This document shows positions 5,240 through 27,005 of a DNA stretch of 64,000 bases, one piece after another. Where the stretch lies: assembly GCA_951406725.2 (NCBI GenBank), contig OX597817.1:65038001-65102000 (forward strand), in the 5' to 3' direction. Position 1 is the first letter of the stretch. Every line of letters begins with the position of its first letter. Source of the DNA: Octopus vulgaris (taxonomy: Eukaryota). Position numbers and translations under genes: made by a program. The notes under the pieces were generated by a model. It was not told where the DNA came from. It was given only the letters and a program-made list of their open reading frames with translations, and searched no databases.

Positions 5240-5465
5240 TTAATAACAGCGACCGAAAAAGTGGAAGAACTTCATACGATTGCATCTTAATGACCCACAG
5301 CATCTTTGCAGGAAACTACATCGGTCGCCAGCTGGTCTGCATTCAAAGAAACCTCGTTTCCCATCTGGGTAACCGTAAAAAGATGTGGTACTGTAATAGT
5401 GGAAATCCCTCCTGTTCATAGGGTCAGCTGCTGAACTGATGACCGACCGTGGAGTTTGTTGCTCC
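5240..5465 (-). CDS. Coding exon 3: pro-region, RR-DFHYYSTTSFYGYPD-GKR, and mature ICK peptide GFFECRPAGDRCSFLQRCCGSLRCNRMKFFHFFGRCY*
   Basis: Branch-point-like TACTAAT, then tattctgtttactAG acceptor; phase-2 start; dibasic sites RR and GKR; cysteine spacing C-X6-C-X5-CC-X4-C-X11-C; TAA at 5242-5240. Confidence 0.9.
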
Positions 5466-5584
5466 CTAGTAAACAGAATATATAAGAGTATTAGTATTAT
5501 ACAAACATACATGCATACATGCATACATACATACATACATACATACATACATACATACATACATACATACATACATACATACAA

Positions 5585-5930
5585 AAATACTCTGTTGTTG
5601 ATGTTGAAATTCCAATGAAGGAACCTTGGATCTCGGTTAGAAATCGGTTCTATCTCTATTGGCAAGAAGTCTTGAAATAAACTGAATAATGACATACATA
5701 CATACAAGTTCAGGTTTATACCTGTAACTATTGGGACCCCGGGATATGTAACACTGCCTAAATACCAATCTTGAGAAATTTAGCTCCCGAAAACCAGAAA
5801 GCGGAAAGCTAATTCAAAGACTACAGATCGAATCCATCACTGGAACTGCAAAAATCTGTAAAACTTTCCAGAAGTTTATCATTTAAATATATATGAGCAT
5901 GTTTAGATATGCAACTATATGCATGAGGAA
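5585..5930 (+). mobile_element. Short (CATA)n-embedded repeat (5585-5695) plus a C-terminal fragment of an RLE-type non-LTR element (5703-5890)
   Basis: YKFRFIPVTIGTPG..LIQRLQIESITGTAKICKTF-like reading; an inverted homolog of 5585-5695 lies at 6778-6883. Confidence 0.5.
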
Positions 5931-7216
5931 AACGGCTCCATCGTTGCAATTTATGTAGCAGTAACAATTCTATAGAGTTAAATTTTGAACTTATGAAAAG
6001 GCTTGCATATTTTCATTGGTCGCTGACAGCGTGCGTGCTTGCAGATCGTACATATGTTTTCCTTGGGGTTTATTTAAATTCTTCTTGGTAGAATTTAAAC
6101 TGATCACAAACAGCGTAGTATGGTCTCTTTCTTTTAATATAGATAATTCCAGAGATTTGTAAATAAGTGTGGGTCTATGAGTGTATATATGACAGTGGAT
6201 ATTTGCATGGGTGTGAGTGTATGCAGTTATTTTGTAGGTACGAATATATGAGTATGAGCCACTGTTTGCATTGATATAATGAATACACATGATTCGTATA
6301 CTAAAGTACGCTAATCGACGATTTTTGTGCATGTAAATATAAGTGTATGCTGTATACACATGCATTGGGGAGTGGGTGTATTTTTCTTTTTGTTGAATCA
6401 AATAGAGATATAAATGTATCTATGTATGAATAGCTAACAGGTTGAGAGAACGGATTAATGGATACTCTGAGAGTTATTTAGGTCTTTTGCAGAATTCAAG
6501 CTTGTTCATTACAGAATAACATGGGGTGGGGTATTAGTCAAGAAAGACTATTGATTTTTAACATATGAGTGCGTTAATGTGTGTGTGTATGTGTGTGCGT
6601 GTATGTGTGTGTGTGTGTGTGTGTGTGTGTGTGTGTGTGTGTGTGTGTGCGTGCGTGCGTACATGCAGGTGTATGTGTGCATTGATAGACAGATATATTT
6701 ACATATATATATATATATATATATTGTGTGATGTATGTAGTAGGTTTTTATCAGTATGTATGTATGCATGTATGTATGTCATTGTTCATTTTTATTTCAA
6801 CATTACTTGCCAATAGAGAAAGAACCAGTTACTAACCTAGATTCGAGGCTCCTTCATTGGAATTTCAACATCAACAACAGGGTATGTATGTATGTATGTA
6901 TGTATGTATGTATGTATGTATGTGTGCAGATTTGTATGTTTTGTTTTTCTGTAATTTTGTTTTTCTGTAAATTTCAACTATATATATATATATATATATA
7001 TATATATATATATATATATATATATATATATATATATATATATATATATAATAGTTATCGCCATACTAATATGGCATTCTTATAAAAATAAGAATAAAGC
7101 TGTCCGCTTATTAGCTCCATGAGGCCATCGCCTTAAGTTAGCTATTTGATACACAAACTGTATCCATATAACCTTCGAACAAGGGAGGTCAGTCGCTCCA
7201 CACTACTTGACCGGCA

Positions 7217-7258
7217 GCTACAGACGCGTTTCGGGGTATTGCCCCTTTTCAATGCAGC
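7217..7258 (-). ncRNA. Type I hammerhead ribozyme, inverted copy
   Basis: Reverse complement of 7472-7513. Confidence 0.8.
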
Positions 7259-23546: not shown

Positions 23547-23979
23547 ATATGGTGGCGAGCTGGCAGAAACGTTGGCACGCTGGGCGAAATGCTTAGCAGT
23601 ATTTCGCCTGTCTTTACGTTCTGACTTCAAATTCCGCCGAGGTCGACTTTGCTTTTCATCCTTTCAGGGTCGATAAATTAAGTAGCAGTTGCATACTGGA
23701 GTCAATCTAATCGACCGGCCCCTCCCCCAAAATTAAGACCTTGTGCCTTGATAGAAAAGATTATAAAGGCGGCGAACTGGCAGAAACGTTAGCACGCTGG
23801 GCGAAATGCTTTGCGGTATTTAGTCTGTCTTTACGTTCTGAGTTCAAATTCCGCCGAAGTTGACTTTGCCTTTCATCCTTTCGGGGTCGATAAATTAAGA
23901 ACTAGTTGCGTACTGGGGTCGATCTAATCGTCTGGCCCCCTCACCCAAAATTTCAGGCCTTGTGCCTAGAGTAGAAAAG
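23547..23979 (+). mobile_element. Head-to-tail dimer of tRNA-derived SINE (family B)
   Basis: Two GG(C/T)GGCGA(G/A)CTGGCAGAAACG..TTCAAATTCC units inside one 14-bp TSD ATTATATTATTGCA (23533-46, 23980-93). Other family B copies at about 26040-26265, 29030-29248, 29277-29673, 30735-31148, 34590-34760 and 47560-47690. Confidence 0.85.
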
Positions 23980-24740
23980 ATTATATTATTGCAGTTTTAA
24001 CCTCCCTTTTTTAAACACACCCAAAGGTAGTTCATCCTCTACGTCACCGTTTAGAATGCTTGAAATATATCAGGGATCACATGAGTCTTAAAAGTAATTT
24101 ATTTTTTCCGCATAATTGTAATTTAGTCACCAAAACGATGAGGAAACAAAATCATGCGTTTTTTTTCACATTATATACTCTTATATAATCGTAATCTAAG
24201 CCACCTGAAAGTTGTTTGTAGAGAATATTCTAAAGATCCATTTTCCTGAAAGCTGTAAGGAAAGGAAATTGAGATGTGTGAATTATCCGAAACTCCTCCC
24301 ACAAAAAGATTTTTCAACACAAATTCTGATATAATGGCAATCTACATCACCTGAAACGTATTTGTAGAAAGTTTTAACAATAAATACATGCGATCTGCCT
24401 CTGTCACTGAGTCTGACTCTCTCTTATTCTCTCTTACTCTTTATATATATGTATAAATATGACATTCAGGCGTTTTAACACCCAGCCCTTTGAGGGCGTT
24501 ACTCCCATCGCACTAAACCGCAGCGTACCGGCGAACATGCAAAACATATACCTTGACTATATGCAGTCGATAATACTTACAACACTAGCGTTGCTTTTAA
24601 TTCGTAATTGAATTCAATCTTACGTATGTATCGTCGTGACATATCAGCAAATGATTCTTACCGCATAAAAGATGCCTAATTGACTAAACATGTCTTCATT
24701 AAAATTCATCAATTTAAATACAATATTTCCGGGAAGTTAG

Positions 24741-26010
24741 TATGAGGGTGGGCTGAGAAGTTCATAGGCTGACTATGAAGGAGTGTCCCTAGTTCGATTC
24801 TAGTATGTGATGTTGATAAGCTACAAAAATGGCAAAGTATCGGTATCCCTCGCTCCCGAATGAGATTAGGGAGGGTTGTCTCGCCTGTCTATAATTTTCA
24901 GGTGTTTTAAAACTCAGTGCTTCGAGGGAGTCATTCCCCACCGCGCTAGAACGCAGTGTACCAGCTAACAAGCAAAACACATACATTGAATATGTGTAGT
25001 CGATAATTTTACAGCACTGGCGCTGCTTCTAATCCATAATTGAATACACACACAAACACACACACATACACACACACACACACACACACACACACACACA
25101 CACAAACATTAGCAAAGGTACCCGGTACGGTTGGAATATGTAGAAATATTCCTTGTTTTTTGCTGAGCTTATAACACCTTATATCAAATTTTTACGTACT
25201 GATTTATTTTATTTTATTATATTTGCACATATTCTAATTGTTATGTAGATATATGTCATACGAGGGCTACCCAAAAGTAACCGGAAATGTTCGTTGTAGG
25301 ACAAATCCGTAGTAGTTCAGGTTAGAAGCTACTTGATGCAACCCTCAGGCACCAGCCTGCCGATCGCACGTCGGCTGAAGTCGTATTTTTGCGATGGCTG
25401 AAACGAAAGAACAGCGTACTTCCGTGAAAATCTGTTTTCTGCTGGGGAAAACAGCGGTCGAAACAGTTGTCATGCTTCAAACAGCTTACAAGGACGCTGC
25501 CATGAGCAAAACACAAGTTTGTTCCTTGCTTGCTCACGGGAGATCAAAAGCATTCGCGACTGAATGCGTGTTGTGAACTGAAAGAACAATTGGAAGTTGA
25601 TAGGAACTGTTTTTTCGAAGGTCATCACTGATGATAAAAGCTGGTGTTACAGAAATTGCAGATGTGGAAGAGGTGAAGAAAAAAACGACGGAGGCGTTAA
25701 AAGGCATCATTTCGCAAGAGTTCCAGCATTGCTTCGGATAGTGGAAAACATGTCTGGACCGATGCATTGCTTCAAATCCTTTTGGATTTCTTGAACGTTT
25801 CCTAAGCCAGGAAGAGTGTTGGGTTCATCACTTTGAGCAAGAGACGAAGAAACAATCCGTACAGTGGAAACACCCCCTCCTCACCTGCTCCAAAGAAGGC
25901 CAAGGTCGTTTCATCTGTAAGGAAGCTGACGGCCTCAGATTTTTCGGATGCAAAAGGCTTTGTGTTTATTGACTGTCTTCAAAAGATCCACATCATTAAT
26001 AGAGTTGATT
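24741..26010 (+). mobile_element. Two interleaved mariner remnants (second element about 25261-25780)
   Basis: Two TA-(T/C)GAGGG termini (24741, 25259); MAETKEQRTSVKICFLLGKTAVET.., VITDDKSWCY, WKTCLDRCI, then QEECWVHHFE..WKHPSSPAPKKAK. Confidence 0.75.
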
Positions 26011-26941
26011 ATTTTTTCATTGTAATATTTAAGTTCTTTAAGGCGGTGAGCTGGCAATATTGTTAGCATGCTGGCCAAAATGGTTAGCGACATTTCGTCC
26101 GTCTTTACATGCTGAGTTCAAATTCGCCGAGGTTGACTTTACCTTTCATCCTTTCTGGGTGGATAAAATAAGTACCAGTTGAGCACTAGGGGTGGGATGG
26201 GGTCAATGTAATTGACTTACCCATCCTCCGAAATTGCTAGCCTTGTACCAAAATGTGAAACCATTATATATTGATACCATTATATATTGATGCACACACA
26301 CACACGCGCGCTTGCGCGTGTGTGTATGTATGCATGTATATATCTATATCTATATCTATATCTATATTTATATATATATATAGTATATGCACTCGCACAG
26401 AAAGGAGTATATATATTGGTTTCAAATTTTGGCATATATATATAATAATATATGCACACATACACACACAAATATTGGCTTCAAATTTTGGCACAAGGCA
26501 AGCAATTTCGGGAGAGGGGTAAGTCGATTAAATGAACCTTAGTGCTCAACAGGGAGGATGTAAGGCAAAGTTAACCATACATATATACATGCATACATTC
26601 ATACGTACATACATGCACACACATATAGGTATGTGTGTGTATTTATTTTAATACATAAGAATCTATATTCGCCATATTCTAGTAAATATATATATATAAA
26701 TATGTATATACATATATACAGATATATATATATATATATATATATATATATATATATATATATATATATATATATATATATATGAATGAGAGAGAGAGAG
26801 AGAAAGAAAGAGAAGGGGATACCTAGATGGGTCTACAAATAGAATAAAGACAGACAGATAGATAGATAGAAAGATAGATAGATATGCAGACAAACAAGTA
26901 GATATACATGGATAGATAGAGGCATTTTCATGTATACTTAC

Positions 26942-27005
26942 TGAATGTTACCATTGCATTGAGGATGAAGAAGCAGAGAAGAAGGGCTGTTGCTCTTGTA
27001 TTCAT
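26942..27005 (-). CDS. Coding exon 1 (signal peptide MNTRATALLLCFFILNAMVTF) of a secreted knottin/ICK peptide precursor
   Basis: Minus strand reads aagATG AAT ACA AGA ... ACA TTC A|GTAAGT: 64 nt, phase-1 end, consensus donor; basic N-terminus followed by a hydrophobic core. Confidence 0.85.

Follow-up and report, generated by a model that had tools for sequence, protein, structure and literature searches.

Within 64,000 nucleotides (nt) of the Octopus vulgaris genome (GenBank assembly GCA_951406725.2, contig OX597817.1, positions 65,038,001 to 65,102,000 of the forward strand; hereafter the window), three small minus-strand exons form a gene whose 120-amino acid (aa) precursor ends in a 37-aa peptide with six cysteines. 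The three-exon gene is real, and splicing of exon 2 to exon 3 was observed in read contigs. Database matches comprised orthologues in octopuses and Argonauta, which have no assigned function, and more distant homologues, one from a chiton and one from Owenia, an annelid. Judging from the sequences, we put at roughly 0.5 the probability that the peptide represents, in single-knot form, an old family of secreted spiralian peptides and serves in endogenous signalling, as opposed to acting as a toxin on prey. The locus had been picked out by a first-pass annotation, which was made by a model from the letters alone and rightly attributed the DNA to a cephalopod.

Gene structure and splicing

The exon coordinates and sizes, the GT-AG sites, the phases (1, then 2), the 363-nt total and the 120-aa product given by the first-pass annotation were all reproduced exactly from the sequence, and separate translation of each exon yielded the residues it had listed. 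The parts of the gene, all on the minus strand and including the predicted untranslated regions (UTRs), are as follows.

27006-27087: inferred 5′ UTR, approximately 80 nt if there is no further exon, as the contigs cannot prove the true start.
26942-27005: exon 1, 64 nt, with ATG start and phase-1 donor GTAAGT; residues 1-21, the hydrophobic core of the predicted signal peptide.
14033-26941: intron 1, 12.9 kb, GT-AG, phase 1.
13960-14032: exon 2, 73 nt, with pyrimidine tract, AG acceptor and phase-2 donor GTAAGA; end of the predicted signal (predicted cleavage after Ala27) and start of the propeptide.
5466-13959: intron 2, 8.5 kb, GT-AG, phase 2, containing an antisense long interspersed nuclear element (LINE).
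5240-5465: coding part of exon 3, 226 nt, with AG acceptor; in order, remaining propeptide, RR, Tyr-rich segment, G-KR, 37-aa six-cysteine peptide and TAA stop.
5363-5407: Tyr-rich segment, 15 residues between RR and G-KR, a predicted amidated peptide in Octopus.
5243-5353: predicted mature knottin, 37 aa, Cys spacing 6,5,0,4,11, free C-terminus.
4967-5239: 3′ UTR, with AATAAA at 5019, 4986, 4979 and 4972, all downstream of the stop.

The C-C-CC-C-C pattern occurred once across the six frames of the window. The Kyte-Doolittle 9-mer mean of exon 1 peaked at 3.29, and the combination of a hydrophobic signal core (the signal being predicted) with basic cleavage sites is a general feature of neuropeptide precursors. 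The layout of signal, propeptide and knot with a framework VI/VII-type cysteine order, as originally described, was therefore recovered. The octopus mature peptide has a net charge of +5 and 8 aromatic residues, and it ends in Cys-Tyr-stop, without Gly.

Twenty-four sequencing runs were listed, 20 of them with the exon 3 stretch, and four, one each from four studies, were examined; none of the listed runs is recorded as RNA, and the comparison was made without a DNA control run. In 4/4 runs, contigs covered exon 3 unbroken and carried the knot form, and the contig alignment ended exactly at 5465 and continued with sequence that exactly matches the 3′ end of exon 2. The joining of exon 3 to exon 2 over an 8.5-kb GT-AG intron is the pattern of a spliced transcript. 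Thus, of the two predicted junctions, exon 2/3 (13960/5465) was present in every run examined, whereas exon 1/2 (26942/14032) was not seen in the contigs of these runs. The exon 1/2 join is supported by a perfect donor and by two database proteins (P0003 and P0004) that align with each of the three exons. In 3/4 runs there were also loose contig parts (219, 217 and 148 nt) longer than the 137 nt of exons 1 and 2; the first two, reaching 82 and 80 nt beyond these exons, are the basis of the inferred 5′ UTR. At the other end of the gene, contigs from three runs extended to 4994-5008 in the 3′ UTR.

Annotation of the gene and its orthologues

The gene had been called hidden, which is true only in part, because RefSeq and GenBank hold full-length orthologues. 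That of Octopus bimaculoides, XP_014778599.1 (LOC106875128), is present in RefSeq with its full 120 aa as "uncharacterized" and is 92% identical over exon 3, and that of Argonauta hians, GAB1606781.1, is full-length in GenBank, also uncharacterized, with 69% identity over exon 3. Both have the architecture and spacing (6,5,0,4,11) of the octopus gene, except that Argonauta lacks the RR site. What escaped annotation is the knot in O. vulgaris itself: the model CAI9721137.1 matches the locus exactly up to the KR site and then drops the knot, leaving exon 3 via a weak internal donor directly after KR. Its last 8 residues are encoded 23 kb past exon 3, in a small exon whose acceptor is clean (L015:1992, minus strand; G000:C4 ~65019992). 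This ending represents an isoform without the knot or else an error of gene prediction, and CAI9721137.1 was counted as non-independent support for the gene. Since it lacks the knot, proteomic searches on that annotation cannot detect the peptide. The available supplements of O. vulgaris skin-mucus (PMC10138644) and salivary-gland (PMC7693380) proteomes gave 0 matches; the latter holds mostly identifiers without sequences, and neither blank is evidence. No paper was found for the gene accessions or motifs in a search with subscription journals and bioRxiv supplements outside its range, and the supplementary sequences of a large survey of spiralian neuropeptides, octopus precursors among them, did not include this one.

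Copy number and conservation

Exon 3 searched against the 2.8-Gb genome gave one match among 4 candidates, and with the mature peptide the self-match alone was significant (3 of 3 candidates listed); no paralogue was found in these searches, which scored few candidates and which distant paralogues can escape. The weak genome matches L003, L004, L008, L010 and L011 showed no intact knot on reading.

A third orthologue pair (P0005/P0006) came from Logan contigs, 99 of which carry this orthologue; the two sequences differ at 12 positions, 0 of them in the mature part. Among P0004, P0002 (Argonauta) and P0005, identity was 24–26/37 in the mature peptide (18–20/31 at non-Cys positions), 15–29/55–56 in the propeptide and 3/14 to 7/24 in the signal. 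Between distant orthologues, conservation is highest in the mature knot, at 65–76% identity against 21–35% in the signal. Its Cys5-Cys6 loop was basic-aromatic, R-x-K-F-aromatic-aromatic-F-F-G, in 4/4 cephalopod-type sequences aligned. At 5270-5281 (minus strand), two places past the conserved Arg-bearing start of this last loop, O. vulgaris carries Met at a position that is acidic in Owenia and in the other cephalopod-type sequences.

The cleavage sites were RR and G-KR in octopus, KK in P0002, RR in P0010 and a single R in P0005 and P0011. Those around the Tyr-rich segment were not conserved, P0002 lacking RR and P0005 lacking both. P0005 retains the Tyr-rich acidic segment; a single Arg followed by Pro replaces G-KR, so its processing may differ.

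Relatives in a chiton, an annelid and other spiralians

A profile search of 1.84 billion proteins returned 8 matches at E up to 0.001, three of them cephalopod-type. The profile was also matched by XP_064597734.1 of the chiton Liolophura (E 4e-5) and CAH1794238.1 of the annelid Owenia (P0011; E 6.7e-4). P0007 and P0008, metagenome fragments with 4–5 repeated knots and generic cysteine matches, were set aside, as was P0009 (801 aa), in which the match was confined to the propeptide. Searched back against the 2.8-Gb genome, both the chiton protein (E 2.9e-5, best of 2) and the Owenia protein (E 0.0036, best of 3) had exon 3 as top match. Ten invariant columns, four of them non-cysteine, are common to the chiton, Owenia and cephalopod peptides, and the chiton and Owenia proteins share the motif G-[FI]-[FL]-[ED]-C after a basic site, as well as CCG-x-L-x-C-x-R...G-x-C. 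The chiton protein contains a single knot (spacing 6,5,0,4,10) and the Owenia protein two (6,5,0,4,11,2,6,5,0,3,11), the first of which scored 43% against P0005 in alignment. A mature-domain profile search of longer proteins returned the 4 input proteins alone, among 59 candidates, which indicates that the range of the family is sparsely sampled.

Owenia P0011 narrowly passed the Pfam model UPF0506 (PF11703; 24.1 against a cut-off of 23.2) and was the sole homologue scanned to do so; PF11703 searched against this genome gave nothing over the cut-off among 70 candidates, the octopus exon included. In PMC8400842, a UPF0506 protein is secreted by a tapeworm and described as flatworm-specific, and the Owenia double-knot spacing fits its motif. 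By eye comparison alone, the same spacing also fits the 27 "Prohormone-3-related" precursors (26 nemertean and one brachiopod) in the supplement of PMC8557429, a neuropeptide survey. An Atlas structure search ranked the UPF0506 cluster first, below its own bar for family naming. The two groups share with the octopus gene the signal, the basic cleavage site and a first knot of C-x6-C-x(5-7)-CC-x4-C-x(9-11)-C, usually with CCG-x-L-x-C and a terminal G-x-C (the published sequences being compared by eye). They differ in having a second tandem knot (twelve cysteines), whereas in the octopus window, P0002, P0004, P0005 and P0010 a stop follows the first.

Comparison with conotoxins and agatoxin-like peptides

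The first-pass annotation had taken the product for a conotoxin/agatoxin-like knottin and the long-intron signal/pro/mature split for a conotoxin sign. Framework VI/VII conotoxins and tarantula inhibitor cystine knot (ICK) toxins do have the same C-C-CC-C-C order, signal/pro/mature layout and phase-1 first intron. However, conotoxin genes and neuropeptide genes alike have a phase-1 intron behind the signal (PMC12621736), so the exon layout gives no pointer to venom. Pfam Conotoxin (PF02950) and Toxin_12 (PF07740) were below cut-off for every homologue scanned; the best PF02950 score was 21.7 bits against a cut-off of 25.1 (Argonauta P0002), with no match for P0001, P0004 and P0005. A PDB sequence search with exon 3 gave 2 chance matches only. 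Conotoxin genes combine a conserved signal with a hypervariable mature toxin and multigene expansion. In the octopus gene the mature part is conserved, the signal is divergent and no paralogue was found, which is the inverse of that pattern.

CCWamide/agatoxin-like peptides (ALPs), as defined in PMC8557429, have eight cysteines, an amidated aromatic C-terminus and an intron inside the basic cleavage codon. The octopus gene resembles them in its short three-exon precursor with the signal first, its C-terminal knot-type peptide and its phase-2 last intron, but it has six cysteines, no C-terminal Gly and no amidation, and its last intron interrupts a Met codon that lies 124 nt before Cys1, not a basic codon 22–28 nt before. 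An agatoxin-type Pfam search of the genome gave 3 matches among 18 candidates, all of them 8-Cys exons with a phase-2 acceptor 22–28 nt before Cys1, and this exon was not among them; one (L007) is the published octopus CCWamide. By the features examined, the gene lies outside both the conotoxin and the agatoxin-like families.

The other two 8-Cys exons, each with a phase-2 acceptor 28 nt before Cys1, are L005 (G000:C22:2746298-2746429), a CCWamide/agatoxin-type last exon with Gly before the stop, and L006 (G000:C22:15994198-15994323), a last exon with 39 residues beyond the eighth cysteine; they are possibly undescribed octopus CCWamide/agatoxin-type paralogues. Agouti and AgRP present a basic-Phe-Phe loop on a knottin. 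An agouti/AgRP-like reading was rejected, as no Pfam Agouti match was obtained at E up to 1–5, and it is kept as an analogy.

Repeats and a LINE within the introns

The exons had been described as spread over 21.8 kb of repeats. Simple tandem repeats make up 1,908 of the 21,766 bases across the gene span, although a LINE does fill much of intron 2.

8071-12952, plus strand: near-complete LINE retrotransposon, lying antisense to the gene within intron 2; a passenger outside the gene product.

Its first open reading frame (ORF1, 433 aa) has a zinc knuckle, and ORF2 (974 aa) has an endonuclease and a reverse transcriptase, with one in-frame stop before the zf-RVT tail. Contigs of related LINE copies align on 8071-12952 in RNA-type runs. 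Intron 1 contains a tandem repeat at approximately 17935-20093, with an 858-nt unit and copies 99.8–99.9% identical.

Predicted processing and function

The 120-residue precursor would be secreted, with signal cleavage after Ala27, and a prohormone convertase would cut at RR(64-65) and KR(82-83) to free the 37-residue six-cysteine peptide and, in Octopus only, a putative second product, a 15-residue Tyr-rich amide. The three disulfides of the 37-residue peptide would follow the knot order (1-4, 2-5, 3-6), making a cystine knot likely from the order of the cysteines, and the basic-aromatic Cys5-Cys6 loop would probably be the surface that binds an endogenous receptor or ion channel. A single knot is seen in the molluscs compared here; it may have originated from the first knot of the double-knot spiralian prohormone-3-related/UPF0506 peptides.

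Of the venom, antimicrobial and neuropeptide roles originally offered, the comparative evidence leans to the last. To our knowledge, neither chitons nor Owenia are venomous predators. Homologues in a non-venomous chiton and tube worm suggest that this is likely an old body-signalling peptide and not a cone-snail-style toxin. The dibasic sites and the G-KR amidation signal, being prohormone features, also count for signalling.

Several observations weigh against an endogenous signalling knottin. The knot expected by the first-pass annotation was not confirmed by structure prediction, in which AlphaFold gave weak models, with a predicted local distance difference test (pLDDT) score of 60.3 for the mature peptide alone and 41.4 for the O. 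bimaculoides precursor with a 3-row alignment. Foldseek returned 0 matches from the weak AlphaFold model, and VIA-align matched 3 of 48,161 chains at Z 2.1–2.4, all unrelated zinc ribbons, and none at Z of at least 5; these outcomes are uninformative about the fold. The nearest look-alikes by language model (Atlas) and in PDB were tarantula toxins (scores 0.84–0.87, E 0.03–0.7, all below significance), and the cationic and aromatic composition is that of membrane-active toxins and antimicrobial peptides. Between the two Octopus species, differences are about equally frequent in the mature part (4/37) and the propeptide (6/56). The link to chiton and Owenia spans approximately 35 cysteine-rich residues, with few candidates scored in the reciprocal searches. 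In PMC8557429, the precursors clustered as "prohormone-3-related" are predictions marked "unident", for which no receptor is known, and the cluster is expanded in toxin-bearing nemerteans; in PMC8400842 the flatworm UPF0506 protein belongs to a parasite secretome and is proposed as a neuroactive factor. The nemertean expansion and the flatworm secretome suggest that relatives may act outside the body.

The best surviving alternative, which we consider rather unlikely, is a secreted antimicrobial or deterrent knottin of skin, mucus or blood cells. Mollusc-type mature peptides all have a net charge of +3 to +6 and 5–9 aromatic residues, as a defence peptide might, and external secretion of the flatworm relative (PMC8400842) agrees with such a role. 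Presence in non-venomous marine invertebrates would likewise fit a common epithelial function. Defence peptides, however, usually duplicate and diverge; here no paralogue was found, and the mature part is strongly conserved over long distances.

A salivary venom knottin that targets ion channels of prey, and that may have arisen by recruitment of an older endogenous peptide, appears unlikely. It would account for the framework VI/VII-type cysteine order and for the weak likeness to Pfam Conotoxin and to the gating-modifier toxins of tarantulas. Venoms have commonly recruited neuropeptides (PMC13311285 and PMC8557429), and in the main text of a 2026 cephalopod salivary survey (bioRxiv 10.64898/2026.02.02.703354) 27/44 superfamilies are unannotated short secreted proteins, among which the gene may be; that main text, however, contains "knot", "ICK" and "disulfide" 0 times. 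The chiton and Owenia homologues, the lack of paralogue expansion, the conserved mature part with its divergent signal, and an exon layout that is also that of neuropeptides all speak against venom. A degenerate CCWamide/ALP paralogue that lost its fourth disulfide and amide is very improbable, because the signal-first, peptide-last three-exon order, the phase-2 last intron and the aromatics of the last loop are outweighed by the six cysteines, the missing C-terminal Gly, the Met-codon intron, the three separate 8-Cys exons and closest non-cephalopod matches that are not CCWamides.

Endogenous signalling by a single-knot peptide thus remains our preferred reading. Among molluscs, the known six-cysteine knottins are mainly toxins of cone snails. 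Tentatively, and with some doubt, we extend the proposal to a single unrecognised spiralian knottin signalling family that would unite the octopus, chiton, Owenia, prohormone-3-related and UPF0506 peptides, double-knotted in worms and single-knotted in molluscs; alongside CCWamide/ALP, it would be a second knottin system of endogenous function, acting through an orphan receptor, and a possible origin of the six-cysteine molluscan venom knottins. Such a family would link flatworm UPF0506 with the nemertean/brachiopod prohormone-3-related precursors, two orphan groups that have until now been regarded as specific to their lineages. For the octopus, the conservation of the knottin, the absence of paralogues from the searches and the counterparts in a tube worm and in a chiton, a grazer, point to an endogenous role, and the peptide is a concrete 37-residue candidate ligand.

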